NCBI GenBank assembly: GCA_964631325.1
Contig: CAZVWJ010000001.1
Location: 31,075 to 95,074 of the forward strand
From: an uncultured bacterium
Lineage (GTDB): Bacteria; T1Sed10-126
Direction: 5' to 3'
Length of the DNA stretch: 64,000 bases
This document shows positions 10,907-20,226 of the stretch, one piece after another. The notes beneath the pieces are model-generated. The model was not told the DNA's origin, did no database searches, and saw only the letters and a program-made list of their open reading frames with translations. The translations under genes and the position numbers were made by a program. The stretch's first letter is position 1, and the number at the start of each line of letters is the position of its first letter.

Positions 10907-11227
10907 ATGAAAACAATTCGAACTTTAGAGGGATTTGGGCGCTATCTCCGAAAATTGAGAAAAAATAAGGATTGGACTCAAAAAGAACTTGCGGAGAGAG
11001 CAAATTGTGAACAACGAACTATATCTAAATTAGAGAATGGAAACGGCGTCCATTTCCGCACTGCGCTCGATGTGATACAAACCCTGGGAGGAGATTTGGG
11101 AGTAGAGGGTTTGACTTCACGTAAAAAAGAGAAAAACGGAAATTCACTACCTTCAATAGAAAAAGAAAATCTTGGAGTGGAGAGAAAATGTCGGTCTGTG
11201 GAATCTGAGGATGAAACAAAACAGTGA
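10907..11227 (+). CDS. hipB: HipB-like XRE HTH antitoxin
   Basis: LRKLRK..WTQKELAERAN...TISKLENG; GTGA overlap with hipA. Confidence 0.85.
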   Translation: MKTIRTLEGFGRYLRKLRKNKDWTQKELAERANCEQRTISKLENGNGVHFRTALDVIQTLGGDLGVEGLTSRKKEKNGNSLPSIEKENLGVERKCRSVESEDETKQ

Positions 11228-12597
11228 GTTTGGATGTGTATCTCAGGGATCAAAAGGTTGGAACTTATAAGCGCAGTGAGGAAGGCGGAGATATTTTTAC
11301 ATATCTCCCTAAAATTGTAGAAGAGGATCGTTTCCCACCTATTTCCTTATCCTTACCAAAAAGAGAAGAACCATATCGAGGCACGACGGTAGAACGGGCT
11401 TTCCTTCATCTGCTTCCTGATAGTCCAGAAGACAGGGAAAAATTAGCCGCGGATGAACATTTGGAGGATGCATCTCCGTATTCACTTTTAAGTGAATACG
11501 GCCAGGATTGTATCGGGGCACTTCGATTTTTACCCGAGGGGGTGGCGCATGAAAAAATAAAAAAATTTGAGCCGCTCCAGGAAGAGGATATTGCCGAAAT
11601 TATTCAGTCATTGAAATATCATCCAGTTCCCAGAGTTGGGGATCGAAAAATACGGCTCTCACTCGCTGGAACGCAGGAGAAAACGGCTCTTACATGGGAT
11701 CTGGAAGAGGAACAATGGTGCTGGCCGGAAGGTGAAGCTCCATCAACTCATATTTTTAAACCTCCTATGAAAGACGAGAGATTTTTTGATTCTCATATAA
11801 ATGAATATGCCTCAATGAAATTTTTTAGTGCTCTGGGGGCTTCCGTTCCCAAAGTTGAACTATTAGAATTCGAAGGACGATATGAAACAGTCACTGCGCT
11901 TTGTATTCAAAGATTTGACAGACAGGAGATTGAGCGAGGAATTATTCGACTCCACCAGGAAGATTTTTGTAGAGCTTTGGGAAGGGCGGATAAATATGAG
12001 CGAACAGATCCCGAGGGCAATCCAAAGGAAAGACTTGCTCATATTTGTTTGGATTTACTCAACATGACGGATGATCGCCATCAGGAACAATTAAAATTTA
12101 TCCAGGGACTAATCCTTCAATGGATTTTAGCAGCCACAGATGGCCATGCTAAAAATTATGGGATATTCCTGGAAGAACAGAAAATACGCATGACTCCCTT
12201 TTATGATGTTATGTCCGGTGAACCATATAATCGGAATAACCCACTTTCTGATAAAGACGCTTTAACTATTGGATCATCTCAGGGCTGGGCAAGTGGAAAA
12301 CGTCCGTTCCACCTTGATCAAGATCTGGCAATGTCATTGGGCGCCCCCCCAAAAACAAAAATCAATGAGGTTAAACCACAAGATTTTATTAATTTGGCTG
12401 AAGTTAAAGGTTGCCGTCTGGCCGCGAGTGATATTTACGAGATAATGGAGAATACTTTTAAAAGAATTCCAGCCGGAATCAAAATTCTCAGAGAAGATAC
12501 ACGTTTGAGGAAGTTTGGTAAACGTAAGCAAAGAATAATCGATCCAATGATTGAAGGTATTGAAAAAAGAAGATCGGTCTTAAATGATTTTTTATAA
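11224..12597 (+). CDS. hipA: HipA-family Ser/Thr kinase toxin
   Basis: N-terminal couple_hipA (ISLSLP, LLPD), LSLAGTQEK, THIFKP, HQEDFC, DGHAKNY, PFYDV. Confidence 0.93.
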   Translation: MSLDVYLRDQKVGTYKRSEEGGDIFTYLPKIVEEDRFPPISLSLPKREEPYRGTTVERAFLHLLPDSPEDREKLAADEHLEDASPYSLLSEYGQDCIGALRFLPEGVAHEKIKKFEPLQEEDIAEIIQSLKYHPVPRVGDRKIRLSLAGTQEKTALTWDLEEEQWCWPEGEAPSTHIFKPPMKDERFFDSHINEYASMKFFSALGASVPKVELLEFEGRYETVTALCIQRFDRQEIERGIIRLHQEDFCRALGRADKYERTDPEGNPKERLAHICLDLLNMTDDRHQEQLKFIQGLILQWILAATDGHAKNYGIFLEEQKIRMTPFYDVMSGEPYNRNNPLSDKDALTIGSSQGWASGKRPFHLDQDLAMSLGAPPKTKINEVKPQDFINLAEVKGCRLAASDIYEIMENTFKRIPAGIKILREDTRLRKFGKRKQRIIDPMIEGIEKRRSVLNDFL

Positions 12598-12693
12598 GAA
12601 CAAAGGTATTATTTAACAGTTCCTTTACGGAGCAGGTCTATGGGGGTGGACAGAGGGAATAATATTTTCAAAAGAAAAAGAGGTGTAAACACA

Positions 12694-13938
12694 TTGTCCG
12701 TTCGCACGGATTTATTTTTTGAGCTGCTCTCCGATCATCACGGAGTTCTCGAGGAAATTCAGCGCGAGAAACAGGCCGGTGAAAACCGGGTGAGGACCCT
12801 TATCGAGGAATACCGTGAAGAGTCGGACGACCGGTCGGTCGAATATATTTTTCACCGCCTGCGCGAGGCCCGAATTTTACAGCCCCTGACCGAACAGCAC
12901 GACAGCGTCTTCGAGGTTGCTCCTTCCGTTCGTGACGTCCTGCGGTTCGTGAACCAGGATTACAGTATTTTAGGCATTGAGAGCATAGAATCATATTTTG
13001 AAATTATGGATCGTAATCGGAAGAACCTCGGTCAGGCAATTCGCCGGATGGAATCGGGCGAGGCAAAGATGCGGCTGGGAAACATCGACGAGGCCCTGAG
13101 AAACGTGCACCGGGAGGTGGTGCAGAACCGCCAGTCCATCGAAAGACGGGTGGATGAACTGAATCAGTCCGGGGGGGATGGTCGATCACTCAAAAAACGA
13201 TTCCAGATCATTGAAACACTGTGGCAGGAATACGTAAAACCACTCGGAAAACTCGTTGATCCGGAAGAACGCCCCCGAGAGATCCTTTCAAGGGTGGGGA
13301 AACTTTTACAGGAGGGGCGGGAAACGTTCTCCCAAATTTCGGATTTGTCGAGTTCCTTCCGGTATAGTTTCCAGCGTCTCCAGTATTTTCTCGACGTGTT
13401 CCAACGTAGTTTCGACGCAGTTCGAACTGAAATTCAGCCCCTTCGGAAGAAATATCGGCACAATGATCGGTTCCTCCAGGGGGCCTCCCACTTTCTCGAA
13501 GCCGAACGCCGGGAACGGGACCCCGGAATTGATGCGGATCAGTGGTTCCAGTTTCCATTGTCACGGAGCCAGGGAATTTCAGACGACCGGGAGATTCAAA
13601 AACACTTTCGGAAACTGTTCCGGTATGAACCGTCCCACTCCGTCCGCTTGAACCCGCCCGGCGAAGAAGAAACAACGACATACGTTTCCCCCTTTGAAAT
13701 TGCCCGGGAACTCGAGGAGGACCCCGATGTGAACGACGTGATGAAGGCAATCATCAACCGGGAACGTTCCCTTTCGCTTAAAGTGATATTACAGGCGTAT
13801 GGTTACTGCTATCGGAGCTGGGAGGAATTCAATCAGAAATCTCAGAAACAAATCTATCAACACGAGGAGACCGAATTACGGCTTTATCCCATCCACCGGC
13901 GAAACGCGGAGGTCATCACGGAATCCAGTGGAGAATGA
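12694..13938 (+). CDS. MksF/JetA-like (kleisin) subunit of an SMC system
   Basis: First gene of the SMC operon; wHTH-like N-terminus, helical middle, size about 415 aa; GAGGTG RBS before TTG 12694 (the ORF extends to 12640). Confidence 0.6.
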   Translation: MSVRTDLFFELLSDHHGVLEEIQREKQAGENRVRTLIEEYREESDDRSVEYIFHRLREARILQPLTEQHDSVFEVAPSVRDVLRFVNQDYSILGIESIESYFEIMDRNRKNLGQAIRRMESGEAKMRLGNIDEALRNVHREVVQNRQSIERRVDELNQSGGDGRSLKKRFQIIETLWQEYVKPLGKLVDPEERPREILSRVGKLLQEGRETFSQISDLSSSFRYSFQRLQYFLDVFQRSFDAVRTEIQPLRKKYRHNDRFLQGASHFLEAERRERDPGIDADQWFQFPLSRSQGISDDREIQKHFRKLFRYEPSHSVRLNPPGEEETTTYVSPFEIARELEEDPDVNDVMKAIINRERSLSLKVILQAYGYCYRSWEEFNQKSQKQIYQHEETELRLYPIHRRNAEVITESSGE

Positions 13939-14488
13939 AAACTCAATTTTGGGCACCTCACTCCCGAAGTTGGACGACATTTACGAACTCCTTCGTAAGG
14001 GACGGCATATTACCCGGCAGGAATCGGAGGTCTTCCACCATTTGGAACAACACGAACAGGCCTACCGAGAGTTGTTTAGTCAGCTCGGATACGAGTTAAC
14101 CCGACACGAGAAGGATTTCTTCTACTTCCAGAAGTCCGAGCACCTCTCGAACTACGGACGGAAGTTTGCTGCGTTTGTATTCGTCATTATCGACTACTAC
14201 GCCGACCGAGGACGGTTCCCGGAGGATCTTTTAACCCAGGAAACGTTCAAGATCGACGAAAAACCTTTCGTCAACCATGAGAAGAGACGTTACCGGGACG
14301 TGCTCGAGAAAGCCGGGATAGACTTTGACGAACCCCGACCTTTCGACCGGCTCCTGAGTGACCTGGAACGGTTTGGATTCGTCGAGCGCGACGGTGTTTA
14401 CCATTTTCGCTTCAGGAAACCGATCTACCGGTTTCTGGATTTGGCTGAGGACATTGCCACCCAAGCCGCGAAGGAGGAAAGCCCGTGA
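13928..14488 (+). CDS. MksE/JetB-like (kite, wHTH) subunit
   Basis: IYELLRKGRHI...LFSQLGYEL...DFFYF pattern; overlaps both neighbours; start uncertain (GTG 13928). Confidence 0.6.
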   Translation: MENENSILGTSLPKLDDIYELLRKGRHITRQESEVFHHLEQHEQAYRELFSQLGYELTRHEKDFFYFQKSEHLSNYGRKFAAFVFVIIDYYADRGRFPEDLLTQETFKIDEKPFVNHEKRRYRDVLEKAGIDFDEPRPFDRLLSDLERFGFVERDGVYHFRFRKPIYRFLDLAEDIATQAAKEESP

Positions 14489-17292
14489 ATCAACCAATCC
14501 GCTTGATATTGATTAACTCCGGGACCTTTGGCCGGGCGGAAGTGGACCTGAGCCGGGTATCTCACTTCGTGGCCAAGAACAACCTCGGGAAGACCTCGCT
14601 TATGACGACCCTACAGTTCCTGTACGTGAGTAACCACAACAAACACCAGTTCCCCACGTCACTCCGGGAAACACGGAAGCATTACTTCCCCACCAGAAAA
14701 AGTTACGTCCTATTCGAATGTCGGACTGCCGGAGGCCTGAAGACGGTCCTGTTCCGGGGAAAAGGAGAACTCGAGGATTATGATTTCGAACGAAAACTAT
14801 ATGGGGGTCCCTACCGGGAAGAATTTTTCCTGTGCGATGGAGAAAATTTAGAAGTCCACGCCCCGGAGGACACGGACCAATTCATTGCCGGGGAAGGACT
14901 GGATTACTACGTCCTGGATCCACGCAAACACCGGGCCGCGCTCCGGGGCACTTCCAATAACCAATCCATCAACCTCGGTCTGGTTCCCACGGCCACCGAA
15001 GACGATTACATCCAGTTTTGCGATCTGTACGTGGGCTTACTCCAGTTGAGTGACCTGCGTCAGGAACGCATCGAAGATCTCTTTATCCAAGTTCACGAAC
15101 GCGATCTATCCACCAAGACCGTCTCGCTCTACGATCACTCTGACGAGTGGGAATCAATACTTGAGAAACAGCGCCAGCTTCAAGTATTCCAGACTCAAAA
15201 AACCGCTATAGACAATCTACTTATGCAGTGGAGGGAGTTCCGGAAAAACCTCCGGCACGTGAAGGAACTGGCGCCAAAGCTCCGTGGAGCCTACCGCGAC
15301 CGGCTTGCTTCCATTCAGAGTCAACAGGAGGAGATCAAACAGGAAAAGAAGACACTCGACGAGCGGATGGAGGAGTTGAAATCAAAACGAAGACAACTCC
15401 GGAAGGAACGCGACGGCGTGCTCGAAAATAAGGCTCGGGAGGAACAGAAACGTGATGATCTCCAGGATGGGTTCGAGCAGTTCGAGAATTTCGACGTGAA
15501 CTGGACGCGGCAAGAAGTCCGCAATCTCAAACGCTCTGTCCAGTCCCTGCAAACGAAGCTGGACAGGTCCCTGGAAAAATCCGAAACCGAATATAAACAC
15601 GAAATCGGCGAACTCAACGCGAAGTTGGAAACCATTGAGACGAAAATAGAGGGATGTGAGAACTCATTTTATTCTCTGCTGAAAGACGAGTTCGACCACG
15701 AGCAACTGGAGGTGTTGTTCACCCTTTTAAACCCCACCATTCTCGGGGTGTCCACGGAAGCAAAAGGAGTTGGCCTGGAAAGTTCCGTCGGATTTTATTC
15801 GACGCTTGGAGACCTGCTCGAGCGTTACGATGAACCGGACTGGCAATTTGATTTCGGCCGGTTTTCCCTGGAGTCACCAGTGCTTGAAGCCCCCAACATT
15901 GACGTGCTTGAGAATCCTCGGCTCCTCCGGGTAAAGCGGGAAAAAATGAAGCAACAATTGAGCCAGCTTCGCGATTTGCTCGAACGACGCCGGGATCAGG
16001 ATGAAATAGAAGAGGAAATCCACGAGAAAGAATCCGCGTTGAAATCAAAACAAAAGAAGCTCCACGAGTATGAAAGTTTCATGGAGCAGCAACCGGCGGA
16101 GAAACATTCTGAACTCGAGCAGAATATTGAGAGTTTAACGACCCGAGCCCAGACTCTTGAACAACAGATTGAAGAACACGATGATAGTATCGAATCTTTG
16201 AACGAAAATCTCCAGCAACTTGACCGCAAGCGCAAGCAACTGGAGACTCGCCGTGATTCCACAAAAAAGGACTACGAGCAATGTATGAACTCCGTCGAGC
16301 AGTTGTCGGAGGAAACGAGCCAGCGCCTCCCCGAGGCCGAAGAGGCGGAAACGGAAAAGACATTCAACGAACTGGTGGAAAGCTGGGAGCAAAGCCTCGA
16401 AGAATTTTGGAGCCAGGAATACTCCATCAATAAATCCCTGGAGTTTTTAAGAGATAATTTGCCGGATTATCGAATTAAGGGATCAGACCGGAAACAGGCA
16501 ATACAAGAATTAAAGGAGCGAAACGAGGCCTTTGAACAACGCAAACAGGACCTGGGTCGAGAGTGGCAGGACGCACTCACATCGCTTTCGAGCGTCAGTG
16601 AAAATTTGCTTGAAAGTTTGGAGGTGCTGGCTCGGAAGGTAAATCAACTGAATCACCGAATGAACCGACAGCAGGTCTCGAACTTGGAATACGTCCGGCT
16701 TAACTTCGACCGCCGTACCGAAGACGTCGAGTCGCTGAAGAGAACTATCCAGGCCGGCCGACAGGAACAGGACCTCTTCGATGTCGACGGTCAACTCAAG
16801 CTAACCATTGAACGACTGCAGAATCTAGCGCGAGCAAAGGAAAAACTTCGTATCAGAGATTTGTTCGGGTTGACGTTTGAAGTAAAAAAATCCGACGGAC
16901 CCGGGCGACAATACGCGGATCTGAGTCAAATCCAGAGTCGGGGTACGACGATTACAATCAAGGTTTTGTTCGGTCTCATTCTGCTCAACGGACTGCTTGA
17001 GTCCAGTGGCCCCACCGAGGTACGAATTCCCTTTCTCATCGACGAAGTTCTCCAGTTGGACGGGGACAATATACTTTCCATCCGGCGCCTAGCAGAGCGG
17101 CTTCATTTTGTTCCATTTTTTAACGGAACAACGGAGATTGACGGCACGGACGTTATATATCTTATGCGCGAATACAACGACGGAAAGGTTTACCTGGAGG
17201 AACATCATCGGATCGAACTTAATCGGAAGAACCCGGTCGTCGACGGCTCCGCCCGTGAATCGGAGGCTGGAACCGTGGATTCGGAGTCATGA
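14485..17292 (+). CDS. Short SMC-family ATPase, MksB/JetC-like
   Basis: Walker A AKNNLGKTS, long coiled coils with central hinge-like break, signature QSRGTT, Walker B FLIDE, D-loop LQLD. Confidence 0.85.
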   Translation: MNQPIRLILINSGTFGRAEVDLSRVSHFVAKNNLGKTSLMTTLQFLYVSNHNKHQFPTSLRETRKHYFPTRKSYVLFECRTAGGLKTVLFRGKGELEDYDFERKLYGGPYREEFFLCDGENLEVHAPEDTDQFIAGEGLDYYVLDPRKHRAALRGTSNNQSINLGLVPTATEDDYIQFCDLYVGLLQLSDLRQERIEDLFIQVHERDLSTKTVSLYDHSDEWESILEKQRQLQVFQTQKTAIDNLLMQWREFRKNLRHVKELAPKLRGAYRDRLASIQSQQEEIKQEKKTLDERMEELKSKRRQLRKERDGVLENKAREEQKRDDLQDGFEQFENFDVNWTRQEVRNLKRSVQSLQTKLDRSLEKSETEYKHEIGELNAKLETIETKIEGCENSFYSLLKDEFDHEQLEVLFTLLNPTILGVSTEAKGVGLESSVGFYSTLGDLLERYDEPDWQFDFGRFSLESPVLEAPNIDVLENPRLLRVKREKMKQQLSQLRDLLERRRDQDEIEEEIHEKESALKSKQKKLHEYESFMEQQPAEKHSELEQNIESLTTRAQTLEQQIEEHDDSIESLNENLQQLDRKRKQLETRRDSTKKDYEQCMNSVEQLSEETSQRLPEAEEAETEKTFNELVESWEQSLEEFWSQEYSINKSLEFLRDNLPDYRIKGSDRKQAIQELKERNEAFEQRKQDLGREWQDALTSLSSVSENLLESLEVLARKVNQLNHRMNRQQVSNLEYVRLNFDRRTEDVESLKRTIQAGRQEQDLFDVDGQLKLTIERLQNLARAKEKLRIRDLFGLTFEVKKSDGPGRQYADLSQIQSRGTTITIKVLFGLILLNGLLESSGPTEVRIPFLIDEVLQLDGDNILSIRRLAERLHFVPFFNGTTEIDGTDVIYLMREYNDGKVYLEEHHRIELNRKNPVVDGSARESEAGTVDSES

Positions 17293-18170
17293 CTTCTTAC
17301 GTTGATGCCCTTGCCGGGCTTCTGGACACGCTCCTAACTAAAGGATCCATTCCGAAAAGCTCCCTGTCAGAAAAACAGCGAACTGCACTCGAACCTCTGT
17401 TTACGGGCCAAATTCTGAAAACCGAACCGCGCGGACGAGGCCAGAGCGTAACAGTCCAGAGCTCCGAAGGATTAGAGAAGTTCGTGGAACAACGTTATCC
17501 TTCCGGTTTAAAAGGCGAGGGTAGTAACACAAACTTGTCTCGTAAATCAGCTATTGAGACCCGGCGTGACAGCAAGTTATCCGGAATTGCTCTCGATAAA
17601 CTTCACGTGTTCAGAGTATTTGTTCGGGAACGATTAGTGCATACCGCGGGAGACGTGGAACCGCTCCGATCAACCCGGAGGGCGGGCTTGTATTCCATCC
17701 GGGGTGAACAACTACATCAGTGGGAACTGAACGGAACCCTCGGGACCGTAGAAAACTGGGAACTGTTCAACCACATGGAGACTCTCGATACATTCGAAGA
17801 TGTAGAAGTTCCTCCCACCTTTCTTTATACCGGAGGCAACCTCTCGAATGACGTGTTTGAGTGGTTGGGAAACCGGAAAAATTTGGAGGGAGTAGTTCAC
17901 TTCGGAGATTACGATCCTGTGGGATTGCGAGAATACAACCGGTTGAAAGTGAAATTGAATACTCCCGTCCGATTCCATCGTCCCCCAAACCTGCCGCAAT
18001 TATTCGAAACATATTCCAAAAAGTCGCTTCTTGCTCGGGAAGGGAGCCGTAAAATATTTGAGCGAGTTCGAGCGACCCTTTCGGACGATCCCGAGGTCTC
18101 TAAAATAATCGAACTCATCGAGAAACACAACGCCGGTCTCGAACAGGAAATATTGGCGGAGGGGTATTAA
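17289..18170 (+). CDS. JetD/MksG-like Toprim nuclease (DUF2220-like C-terminus)
   Basis: VENWE (catalytic Glu), HFGDYDP (DxD), terminal LEQE; ATGA overlap with the SMC gene. Confidence 0.75.
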   Translation: MTSYVDALAGLLDTLLTKGSIPKSSLSEKQRTALEPLFTGQILKTEPRGRGQSVTVQSSEGLEKFVEQRYPSGLKGEGSNTNLSRKSAIETRRDSKLSGIALDKLHVFRVFVRERLVHTAGDVEPLRSTRRAGLYSIRGEQLHQWELNGTLGTVENWELFNHMETLDTFEDVEVPPTFLYTGGNLSNDVFEWLGNRKNLEGVVHFGDYDPVGLREYNRLKVKLNTPVRFHRPPNLPQLFETYSKKSLLAREGSRKIFERVRATLSDDPEVSKIIELIEKHNAGLEQEILAEGY

Positions 18171-18412
18171 TGTGGATGTAAGCCGAAATGCAGCAGGAAG
18201 TGGAGAGGAGAGTAAGCGGTTGCGGAAAAGGTGTATCCTTCAATTGAACCTTGCCGAAATTTTGTTGTTTAATTTAATCGGGACGGGGGTTGAGATTTGA
18301 GTTTTATTGGTTTCCGTAATTCGATTTGGTTCGCAGTTACACTTTAGCTACCAGCCACCCAAAGTGTCAGCCATATTGAACGGTATAAATCTCTAACAGG
18401 AGGTACATTATC

Positions 18413-19396
18413 ATGAGTTCCGACAAAGGTCTTTCTATCGAAGAACTTGAAAGGAAAGCAGAAAAAGCTGATTTCTCTGAAGTAGAAGGAACAGCGGATG
18501 ATTCCATAGGAGGAGCGATGAGTGTTGAATCGCTCCGGCTTCCCGATGATATTTGCCAGTGAACCGGTCGGAAAACTGGCCACGATGGCGTTCAAGGAAC
18601 AAAGCGGTGCCCTGATGGCTTACATGAACCATAAAGGAATACGGGGAGGACTCTCGGAAGGACCGATCCGTCGAAACGAACTCCTGCTTATTTTACCGTG
18701 GAACAACCGAATTCACACGTTTACGTCGCCTCCCCCCAACAAGATCCACCGGCAATCGCTTCAGCACTGGATCAATTCGTTCGTGGCCCCTCCTAATCCA
18801 ATCCGGGGGCGGGGACCCGGATCCAATTACCACTCCGGGAAACCGGACGTTGAATCCGTCGTCGACGGCCTTCTCGATCGACCTGAGCCGGACGAACCGG
18901 TAGCGGTCGTGGCCATGCCAGAATTTCTCACCCGGATGACGGAATCACTAACCACCATCGATATTCACGGTGAGCAGATTCAACTCAATCCGTTAACCGG
19001 TCGGGAGATGCTCAAACGATACATTGAGAAACACTCCCCTATTACTTCACCGACTCCCGGTCATTGAGGCCTGCTAAAGAGGCCAAAATTCATGTGGATT
19101 ACGACTACCGGTCGGATCATGGCGCCTATATACGAATCAAAGCGTTCGCTCTCAAGGACGGAGAACGTATTTCGGGCTGGGGATATCTGCCCGATATGGT
19201 CCACGGACACGGAGAAGGAACTGCCACGGCGAAATTATCCTACCACGGCTGGGGCGAGGAAGATATTCCCAAGAGAACGGAGCAACTCGAACTCCTTATG
19301 AGCAGCTATCGGACCGGGGTTTTTTACCGCAAGGCCATCGATTTACCGATTACCTGGGGCGGCGAAAAGAAGAATTATTACTATAACCACCAGTAG
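18413..19396 (+). pseudogene. Fragmented gene: 5'-nucleotidase C-terminal domain plus unknown C-terminal domain (ORFs 18413-18562, 18522-19067, 19064-19396)
   Basis: SEPVGKLA..A...MNHKGIRGGLSEGPI..NELLLILPWNN matches the 5'-NT C domain; AGGAGG RBS before ATG 18413; first and third ORFs share a frame. Confidence 0.55.
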
Positions 19397-19689
19397 GAAA
19401 TCATAAATATCTTCCTTGACCGGTGGAATTATAAAATTTTTGCTCCCATAAACTGATATGCTCCAATAAAATGTATTTAGTTGTCTTCAATTAAAATGAT
19501 TTTTAGTCGCATAAATAGCTTTTAGGGACTTGCCGATCTTTCAGCTCTGTGAACTGATTATATAGCATGGTAATTGTTTAGCCTCCCCTGGAAAATGCGA
19601 ATCGCACACCCTGTGGAACACATTCACAGGGCAGATGGTTCACATTAGCAGAGATTAGAAAAAATTTTGGTTGGCAACTTTTTGCTGGA

Positions 19690-20226
19690 GTGGTGAAACA
19701 AGTGTTAGAAAAACAAGATATCCTCATCTGGATCAAACTATTAATAGAGGACAATGAGAACTTGACGGTTAAAAAAGTTGCCGAAGACCTGGGTTTTCGG
19801 CAGATGGAAATCCTGGATGCCCTTGACACGGGTGAAAAGGAGGGAGTATTTGACCCGGACAAAGGGCTTATACTTCCGGACGCGTTTCTTAATCTTCTCC
19901 GGGATTTACCAAATGTCCTTTACGTCGAACCGGAGAAGCGAAAAAAAGGGATGCCCACGGCGATTTCCGGTCCGCCCCTCTCCCGTGAATTTGATTTCCA
20001 AGACAAGGACGATTACGTCTGGGCAAACTCCCGCGGCCGTAAGCAGGGGTTGGTAATAAAACCACTGCATTCCAAGGTCCCCAGGCTGGCCCGCCGGGAT
20101 AAAAATTTATACGAATGGCTAAACCTGGTGGAGACAATCCGAATTGGCCGGCCGCAGGAACGGGTGCTGGCCTTCGACAAAATAGAAAAACGCCTGCGAG
20201 ATCTCCGGAACAAAATTAAAAATTAA
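19690..20226 (+). CDS. wHTH-containing conserved hypothetical protein (putative antitoxin/regulator type)
   Basis: LEKQDILIWIKL, GMPTA, VW...G, PLH..VP..A..D..LYEWL.LVETIR.GR..ER pattern. Confidence 0.6.
   Translation: MVKQVLEKQDILIWIKLLIEDNENLTVKKVAEDLGFRQMEILDALDTGEKEGVFDPDKGLILPDAFLNLLRDLPNVLYVEPEKRKKGMPTAISGPPLSREFDFQDKDDYVWANSRGRKQGLVIKPLHSKVPRLARRDKNLYEWLNLVETIRIGRPQERVLAFDKIEKRLRDLRNKIKN

Follow-up and report, generated by a model that had tools for sequence, protein, structure and literature searches.

We analysed a candidate plasmid-restriction operon, made of a short SMC ATPase, its two partner subunits and a Toprim nuclease, in a 64,000-nucleotide stretch of DNA from an uncultured bacterium (the whole of this stretch is called the window, and positions are counted from its first nucleotide). 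Four co-directional genes on the + strand fill positions 12640-18170 and encode, in this order, a kleisin-position protein, a KITE protein, an SMC and a Toprim nuclease. Gene 1, the kleisin-position subunit (MukF/MksF-like), lies at 12640-13938 as an open reading frame (ORF) of 432 amino acids; an alternative TTG start at 12694 gives 414 amino acids, nearer to the family norm of 405-430. Gene 2, the KITE protein MksE (MukE-like), lies at 13928-14488 and encodes about 186 amino acids when it is read from the GTG at 13928. Gene 3 (14485-17292, 935 amino acids) encodes a short SMC ATPase of the MukB/JetC group, and gene 4 (17289-18170, 293 amino acids) a mini-JetD/MksG nuclease of the DUF7281 type.

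The mechanical ORF of gene 2 spans 13799-14488 and, with its start at 13799, overlaps gene 1 by 140 nucleotides. Because the Pfam match starts at residue 56 of this ORF and the KITE proteins of the family are 175-200 amino acids long, the true start is probably the GTG at 13928 or the TTG at 13949 (179 amino acids). The stop codon of gene 1 (13936-13938) overlaps gene 2 when the latter is read from its likely GTG. The junction of genes 2 and 3 is a GTGA overlap at 14485-14488 (ccGTGAatc) and that of genes 3 and 4 an ATGA overlap at 17289-17292 (tcATGAct), each with a GGAG-type ribosome-binding site ahead of it. The G+C content is 0.51 in the operon and 0.47 in the window. Promoter and terminator scans gave signals no higher than those of shuffled controls and were not used.

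A preliminary description of this DNA had reported four closely overlapping genes, joined by GTGA at 14485 and ATGA at 17289, and had quoted the motifs AKNNLGKT, QSRGTT and FLIDE in the SMC and VENWE and GDYD in gene 4. The overlaps were read directly in the sequence and all of these motifs were located. Since the order, the sizes and the overlapping junctions of the genes recur in 83 related loci wherever the contig is long enough, the arrangement of the operon is not due to chance.

The four gene products

The AlphaFold2 model of gene 4, with a predicted local distance difference test (pLDDT) score of 79, consists of a winged helix at residues 1-70, a linker at residues 76-103 and an alpha/beta Toprim domain at about residues 105-293, across which strands and helices alternate. 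Foldseek against the PDB ranked topoisomerase VI-A at all of positions 1 to 5, over nearly the full length of the protein (E 7e-5 to 6e-4), with TM scores of 0.42-0.47 and identities of 12-15%. Foldseek against viral structures gave weak matches to DnaG-type Toprim domains only.

The alignment of 82 gene 4 sequences showed that the residues expected of a Toprim nuclease are retained. The catalytic glutamate E155 (17751-17753), within VENWE at residues 154-158, was found in 82 of the 82 sequences, as were D207 and D209 of the metal-binding DxD motif D207-Y208-D209 (17907-17915; GDYD, residues 206-209), while Y208 was found in 81. H204, located just upstream of the DxD motif, was present in every sequence. 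The C-terminal acidic motif E285-Q286-E287 (18141-18149), within NAGLEQE, was conserved to the same degree at E285 and E287 (82/82); G283 was invariant and L284 and Q286 were nearly so. No conserved tyrosine was found in residues 1-104 of the 82 sequences, position 70 being a tyrosine in 50 of them, a phenylalanine in 29 and a leucine in 3. Because no catalytic tyrosine is conserved, the alignment favours a nuclease that hydrolyses DNA over a topoisomerase, and a topoisomerase-like role for gene 4 was dropped on this ground. Topoisomerase VI-A/Spo11 has a winged-helix (CAP-like) domain followed by a Toprim domain, as gene 4 does, but it also has a catalytic tyrosine and a Top6B partner, and gene 4 has neither. 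The Toprim domains of MksG and JetD have likewise been described as similar to that of topoisomerase VI-A and as devoid of the catalytic tyrosine (PMC10123090; PMC10586767).

The JetD1 profile of PADLOC matched gene 4 with 20.4 bits over its C-terminal part only (profile positions 272-406 of 409). Family-wide, JetD was matched by 53 of 71 nucleases (best E 4.8e-11), and Pfam recognised JetD_C in 41 of the 71 and DUF7281 in 48 of them at E≤1e-3 (best 1.3e-9). None of the 71 gave a match to the N-terminal JetD domain (DUF3322). The gene 4 of the window scored 17.4 bits against DUF7281 (PF23947), under the cut-off of 27; since it is below the threshold itself, yet 48 of the 71 family nucleases match and the RefSeq title of a gene 4 homologue is 'DUF7281 / Wadjet JetD domain-containing', it is best taken as a divergent relative of DUF7281. 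By these profile matches, the gene 4 family is genuinely, though distantly, homologous to the Toprim domain of JetD, and it has no arm-CAP region. Searches of the PDB with the single sequence and with the family profile of gene 4 returned no Jet, Muk or MksG chain. These results agree with the preliminary description on three points: the Toprim fold it had assigned to gene 4 was recovered in the AlphaFold2 model, in the Foldseek matches and in the JetD_C matches of the family; the catalytic glutamate and the DxD motif are present and invariant; and the N-terminus, said not to resemble the DUF3322 arm, is modelled as a winged helix of about 70 amino acids only.

The linker of gene 4 (residues 76-103; window 17514-17597) had a pLDDT below 50 and was basic, with R85, R93 and K96 conserved in 74 to 81 of the 82 sequences, which places these three among the most strongly conserved residues beyond the active site. 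The linker may therefore be a binding segment that becomes folded upon contact with a partner or with DNA.

Gene 3 scored 148.1 bits against NCBIfam NF040859 over residues 9-880 of 935 and bears the precomputed Pfam family PF28007. It is laid out as an N-terminal head half, a coiled coil, a small hinge at about residues 405-477, a second coiled coil and a C-terminal head half; the secondary structure of its AlphaFold2 model ran from a beta-rich head through about 180 helix residues, a short centre and about 250 helix residues to a second beta-rich head. The word-indexed homologue search returned no more than 4 proteins, since its candidate list fills up with coiled-coil words, and the model was built on these 4 homologues. 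Foldseek with this model placed MukB first (E 5e-16 to 2e-11), followed by the type II JetC of N. vireti, the type I JetC of E. coli and P. aeruginosa, Rad50 and Smc5/6. Gene 3 belongs to the MukB/JetC group of SMCs; the order of MukB above JetC, obtained with a model of low confidence, is suggestive only.

Alignment of 61 SMCs of the family showed that the Walker A motif AKNNLGKT (residues 30-37; 14572-14595) corresponds to a family consensus GPNNxGKT, in which N32, N33, G35 and K36 are invariant and T37 nearly so. The signature variant QSRGTT (residues 817-822; 16933-16950) corresponds to the consensus ESNGTT, with S818, G820 and T821 invariant; position 817 is a glutamate in at least 90% of the members and a glutamine in the window. 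The Walker B motif PFLIDE (residues 849-854; 17029-17046; consensus PFYLDE) is followed by the D-loop QLD, with P849, D853 and E854 invariant and L858 and D859 nearly invariant. As the Walker A motif, the serine and glycine of the signature and the aspartate and glutamate of Walker B are all kept, the ATPase looks functional. The SMC motifs had been called non-canonical in the preliminary description, which was correct for the signature, a real variant shared by the whole family, but not for Walker A, since AKNNLGKT fits the P-loop pattern [AG]x4GK[ST].

JetC of PADLOC scored at most 28 bits on gene 3, over coiled-coil segments only (residues 207-780), and left the head uncovered. Pfam DUF3584 scored 19.2 bits over residues 8-140, under its cut-off of 31. 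Searches of the PDB with the single sequence and with the family profile of gene 3 returned no Jet or Muk chain, the profile giving coiled-coil noise only.

Split or frameshifted SMC genes were observed at the family loci L020, L023, L030, L042, L061, L071 and L085 (10549-13250); in the complete genome of Desulfofustis limnaeus, for instance, the SMC was called as two proteins of 412 and 528 amino acids. Such copies could reflect decay or sequencing error.

Gene 2 is clearly an MksE KITE protein by its profile matches. It scored 100.3 bits against Pfam PF21980 MksE (E 1.9e-28; cut-off 27) over profile positions 1-162 of 163 and 79.8 bits against NCBIfam NF040858 (MksE), and a profile search returned 333 homologues, of which all those among the matches listed bear PF21980. 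Similarity to JetB was marginal: the long ORF of gene 2 scored 16.4 bits on JetB1 of PADLOC (E 0.002), the 186-amino-acid form gave no match, and 8 of 55 KITE proteins of the family matched JetB with a best E of 1e-5. Pfam DUF4194 scored 18.5 bits, under its cut-off of 32.7, and MukE scored 15-18 bits, which is at noise level. The N-terminus of the KITE protein (window 13928-14000) carries a conserved motif, LPHLxEIFDxLRRGRH, of which the window copy is LPKLDDIYELLRKGRH. This motif contains 'IFD' and recalls the IFDR motif by which type I JetB binds JetD, although it may be merely the first helix of the winged helix.

Gene 1 scored 33.6 bits against NCBIfam NF040857 (E 1.7e-8; residues 49-332), and this model was matched by 57 of 58 kleisin-position proteins of the family (best E 8e-32). 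By blastp, the gene 1 of the window connected to 63 of 63 proteins in the same position of related loci, and its homologues bear the precomputed Pfam family PF28010. Equivalent genes of 407-416 amino acids are assigned to the kleisin MksF in Data S1 of Bürmann et al. 2025 (PMC7617805). From the NF040857 matches of the family, the blastp links, the position and size of the gene and this MksF assignment, we infer that gene 1 encodes the kleisin subunit. The JetA models of PADLOC-DB v2 matched neither the gene 1 of the window nor, at E≤1e-3, any of the 58 family kleisins, and a PDB search with the gene 1 family profile returned no Jet or Muk chain.

The family and its place among Wadjet-group operons

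A word-indexed search with gene 4 gave 8 relatives, and a profile search of 1.84 billion representatives gave 781 clusters at E≤1e-3, 518 at E≤1e-10 and 241 at E≤1e-30; among the matches listed, nearly all were 275-305 amino acids long. A scan of 185,579 species genomes yielded 150 confirmed gene 4 loci. The 80 of these that were kept for the taxonomic account came from Elusimicrobiota, Desulfobulbales, Geobacterales, other Thermodesulfobacteriota, Verrucomicrobiota and Kiritimatiellia, as well as from Rhodothermota, Acidobacteriota, Chloroflexota and Proteobacteria.

The gene 4 homologue was located directly 3' of a short-SMC homologue in 83 of 83 loci, which bears out the linkage to the SMC operon on which the preliminary description depended. 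MksE and an ORF of about 405-430 amino acids preceded the SMC wherever the contig was long enough, and most junctions overlapped by 1-20 nucleotides. The members of the family measure about 405-430 (kleisin), 175-200 (KITE), 900-920 (SMC) and 280-295 (nuclease) amino acids, and the gene calls and Pfam labels of public assemblies give the same order, MksB-MksE-MksF-DUF7281. The window copy is divergent, being about 26-38% identical to other family members, and a 48%-identical nuclease with an adjoining SMC was found in other metagenomes.

Among plasmids, the family operon was found on five, all of them large and non-mobilizable, the smallest of 76 kb and the largest a megaplasmid of 2.3 Mb. They include pSR76 of Salinibacter ruber (L086; 76 kb) and pPNAP02 of Polaromonas naphthalenivorans (L087; 190 kb), in both of which all four genes are annotated 'hypothetical protein'; the other plasmid records are from Ralstonia, Halioglobus and Phocaeicola. 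A plasmid-restriction system aboard large plasmids could act in competition between plasmids. The operon looks like an accessory module that is self-contained and moves horizontally.

Three types of Wadjet are currently distinguished; most of what is known of their mechanism comes from type I, and initial results exist for type II (PMC10586767; bioRxiv 2025.03.10.642339). Type I JetABCD (E. coli GF4-3, P. aeruginosa PA14) and the MksBEFG system of C. glutamicum have the same four roles and the same gene order as the window operon, and their nuclease has the same Toprim glutamate, DxD and C-terminal acidic motif as gene 4 and also lacks a catalytic tyrosine. The SMCs of the window family are shorter, with about 900-935 amino acids, than JetC/MksB in other clades of Bürmann et al., with about 1100-1470. 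The nucleases are shorter as well, with about 280-295 amino acids when the JetD1 profile has 409 positions; they keep the winged helix of about 70 amino acids and lack the arm (DUF3322). When membership in types I to III was judged with the JetA/B/C/D models of PADLOC-DB v2 (after Doron 2018), the operon had no JetA, no JetB, no JetC match that covers the head and no full JetD with DUF3322 and DUF2220. The best scores were 16 bits (JetB1), 28 bits (JetC) and 20 bits (JetD1), with none for JetA, so that the standard profiles do miss this operon, as had been suggested.

Genes 1 to 3 found their best profile matches among the 'Mks condensin' models of NCBI and Pfam (NF040857, NF040858 and NF040859; PF28010, PF21980 and PF28007), the three NCBIfam models being, we presume, those of the P. 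aeruginosa-type MksBEF condensin. The full-length match of the SMC to NF040859 (148 bits), the 80 bits of the KITE protein and the matches of 57 of the 58 kleisins favour the earlier proposal that these proteins are closer to Mks condensins than to JetC. The scores fell far short of the equivalog cut-offs (33.6 against 750 bits for NF040857, 79.8 against 400 for NF040858 and 148.1 against 1900 for NF040859), and genes 1 to 3 are, on this evidence, related to the Mks condensin models without being equivalogs of them. The P. aeruginosa MksBEF condensin has been described without a nuclease (PMC10586767), whereas a nuclease is always present in the family of the window. MukBEF of E. coli, which includes the best Foldseek match of gene 3 (E 5e-16), follows the same kleisin-KITE-SMC logic in the gene order F-E-B, but it is a housekeeping system without a nuclease and its MukB has at least 1467 residues in the solved chains, compared with 935 in the window SMC. 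NCBIfam and Pfam call the protein of about 410 amino acids 'MksB' and the SMC of about 920 amino acids 'MksF', whereas in the literature MksB is the SMC and MksF the kleisin; when such operons are annotated automatically, the two names will therefore be swapped.

The operon was also compared with the iterative catalogue of 'Wadjet group' operons published by Bürmann et al. 2025 (Cell; PMC7617805), which is based on co-directional consecutive genes for an SMC of more than 890, a kleisin of 400-1200 and a KITE protein of 150-800 amino acids and on Walker motifs. The trio of the window, with 432 (or 414), about 186 and 935 amino acids, is consecutive and overlapping and has both Walker A and Walker B, and gene 4 provides the flanking Toprim gene of the MksG/JetD type. 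Data S1 of this catalogue contains a short FEBG clade, supported at 100% in the SMC tree and set on a stem branch about 1.0 long (PMC7617805), with the same gene order and sizes as the window operon. The kleisin, KITE, SMC and MksG proteins listed there have 407, 185, 916 and 281 amino acids in Desulfosediminicola ganghwensis, 416, 193, 921 and 271 in Desulfosarcina widdelii, 413, 189, 909 and 277 in a Chloroflexi metagenome-assembled genome (MAG) and 416, 185, 890 and 273 in Ca. Chloroploca. D. flagellatus, a congener of D. ganghwensis, is a confirmed locus of our family (L022), in which RefSeq names the products 'DUF7281 / Wadjet JetD domain-containing' and 'condensin complex protein MksE' and leaves the SMC and the kleisin 'hypothetical'. 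From architecture and genus, we infer that the window operon lies in the short FEBG clade as a divergent member. No accession of the MAG contigs of the family was found in the table. Among the rows listed for Pseudomonas, all are long type-I-like FEBG operons.

Nearby clades outside type I also have a short MksG of 267-303 amino acids, namely the BEFG operons of Psychrobacter, Acinetobacter and Vibrio breoganii and the FEBG operons of Lactobacillaceae (PMC7617805), and mini-JetD nucleases may thus be widespread outside types I to III. A literature search found no mention of DUF7281, and the reviews and the type II structure paper treat types I to III only, together with the nuclease-free MksBEF of P. 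aeruginosa (PMC10586767; bioRxiv 2025.03.10.642339). The architecture is therefore catalogued, and the names given by Pfam and RefSeq reflect it in part, yet it has no name of its own and is neither discussed nor characterised. The window operon is a divergent member of this unnamed short-SMC/mini-JetD Wadjet subtype, which stands apart from types I to III in sequence and in the sizes of its SMC and nuclease. The preliminary description, which had proposed a distinct subtype, was right in that the operon is unlike the type I to III models, but the novelty is less than it implied, since the architecture already appears as FEBG in Data S1 of Bürmann et al.

Proposed function and alternative explanations

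We consider it likely that the operon encodes a compact DNA-restriction complex of the Wadjet type (MksBEFG/JetABCD), which would extrude DNA loops and then cleave small circular plasmids. The SMC, the kleisin-position protein and the MksE KITE would form an ATP-driven loop-extruding motor, and the motors would probably be paired as a kleisin-bridged dimer, as in MukBEF and JetABC. Its loading on DNA would not depend on sequence. When a small circle has been wholly reeled in, the motor would stall and the gene 4 dimer would be licensed to cut both DNA strands in a metal-dependent reaction; linearisation would destroy the plasmid, while the far larger chromosome would escape. The identities of the genes, their strict linkage and the intact ATPase and Toprim residues come from the sequences analysed here. 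Loop extrusion, the specificity for circular DNA, the size cut-off and the anti-plasmid phenotype would carry over by analogy from Wadjet types I and II and from the MksBEFG system of C. glutamicum.

The arm of type I JetD shields the active site and binds the IFDR motif of JetB, whereas gene 4 is without this arm. Because the long arm of the JetD arm-CAP region is absent, docking and auto-inhibition of gene 4 must differ from those of type I. The small winged helix may couple gene 4 to the motor, together with the basic linker and its conserved R85, R93 and K96. The operon might accordingly be a minimal Wadjet whose nuclease is docked and restrained in a manner other than that of type I, and its clade perhaps also a nuclease-bearing sister lineage of the 'Mks condensin' trio, which would have kept the armed ancestral state that preceded the domestication of nuclease-free MksBEF-type condensins; we offer this only tentatively and hold it to be rather doubtful.

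Several points weigh against a plasmid-restricting Wadjet complex. Its mechanism would have to be carried over a long evolutionary distance, the similarity of the proteins to characterised JetA, JetB, JetC and JetD is marginal or absent, and no characterised member of the clade was found in the literature searched. The regulatory arm-CAP region is missing from gene 4. The closest relatives of genes 1 to 3 by hidden Markov model are named 'condensin' by NCBI and Pfam, and nuclease-free relatives organise chromosomes (PMC10586767; bioRxiv 2025.03.10.642339). The AlphaFold2 model of the SMC is of low confidence (pLDDT 61). The ORFs that flank the operons of the family include ordinary metabolic and housekeeping genes among the others, and they are a qualitative mix without a background control.

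The same parts could instead serve a defence system with another target or trigger, such as circularising phage genomes, episomes, integrative elements or the abortive cutting of host DNA. The neighbourhoods of the family are rich in anti-phage genes, and activation could follow another logic in a nuclease that lacks the regulatory arm of JetD and has a conserved basic linker without a described counterpart. We nevertheless regard another target as unlikely, since all characterised systems that combine SMC, kleisin and KITE with a Toprim protein (Wadjet I, Wadjet II and MksBEFG) restrict circular plasmids (PMC10586767; bioRxiv 2025.03.10.642339) and no gene 4 homologue was found by tblastn in 50,697 phage records.

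The condensin names of genes 1 to 3, the position of MukB above JetC in the Foldseek search with the SMC and the topoisomerase subunit found as the best structural match of gene 4 would fit a housekeeping condensin of the Mks type, with a Toprim partner that resolves DNA entanglements or processes chromosomal DNA. This explanation appears quite improbable when the other results are considered. The absence of a conserved N-terminal tyrosine in gene 4 makes covalent topoisomerase chemistry unlikely, and the NCBIfam scores lie far under the equivalog cut-offs. Moreover, the family is rare, patchy across phyla, present on plasmids and in some cases endowed with a split SMC, which is typical of accessory rather than essential genes, and it lies next to mobile and defence genes.

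That the operon is inactive or a remnant in decay is very improbable. In favour of this, the window copy is divergent within its family, with an identity of 26% in the SMC and of about 22% in the kleisin, two well-conserved SMC positions deviate (A30 for G and Q817 for E) and some relatives are frameshifted. However, none of the four reading frames is broken and each has a length usual for the family, the overlaps at the junctions and the ribosome-binding sites are kept, all invariant catalytic residues are retained, and the 48%-identical nuclease with its adjoining SMC occurs in other metagenomes.

This clade is about a third smaller, with the shortest SMC arms observed and a nuclease cut down to a winged helix and a Toprim domain, and it could be a convenient minimal model for an SMC motor that licenses a nuclease. 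The lack of usable matches to the PADLOC v2 models suggests that censuses of defence systems which rely on such models under-count this clade, which we found in about 150 species-level genomes and 241 to 781 protein clusters. According to a published hypothesis, Wadjet gave rise to the condensins MksBEF and MukBEF when the nuclease was lost (PMC10586767; bioRxiv 2025.03.10.642339), and a trio that is closest to condensins and always accompanied by a nuclease bears on this hypothesis. Nothing is overturned by these observations: the diversity of the group was known before, the architecture stands in a published operon table, and a specialist would not be surprised.

Neighbouring genes

Directly upstream of the operon, two genes on the + strand overlap by 4 nucleotides and have a G+C content of 0.41, compared with 0.47 in the window. 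The first (10907-11227) encodes a HipB-like XRE antitoxin (profile matches to HTH_31/HTH_3 and TIGR03070) and the second (11224-12597) a HipA-like kinase (Couple_hipA and HipA_C, E 5e-41). Downstream, the region from gene 4 to the next recognisable gene (18171-19690) contains small or unannotatable ORFs only, one of which (18522-19067) gave a weak match to a C-terminal fragment of a 5'-nucleotidase. The next gene, a + strand ORF of 178 amino acids at 19690-20226, matched the PADLOC candidate defence family PDC-M21A (E 3.7e-24) and no Pfam or NCBIfam family. There are no tRNA genes in the window, hence no island boundary could be set by tRNA.

The 125 ORFs that flank 33 loci of the family were searched with PADLOC and Pfam. 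No conserved fifth gene was found among them; they include SoFic, PDC-S04, ZorD/DpdE-like helicases, AbiE, BrxC, RepB and IS21. The setting of the operon looks like defence or mobile DNA. Relatives of the operon had as neighbours a type I restriction-modification system with an AAA_15/SMC_N ATPase, AbiE, or a Schlafen-like helicase, and one adjoins a GmrSD broken by insertion sequences and a group II intron. The neighbours of the Salinibacter plasmid copy are DUF262 and a thermonuclease, and those of the Polaromonas plasmid copy are ABC-3C and RelB.

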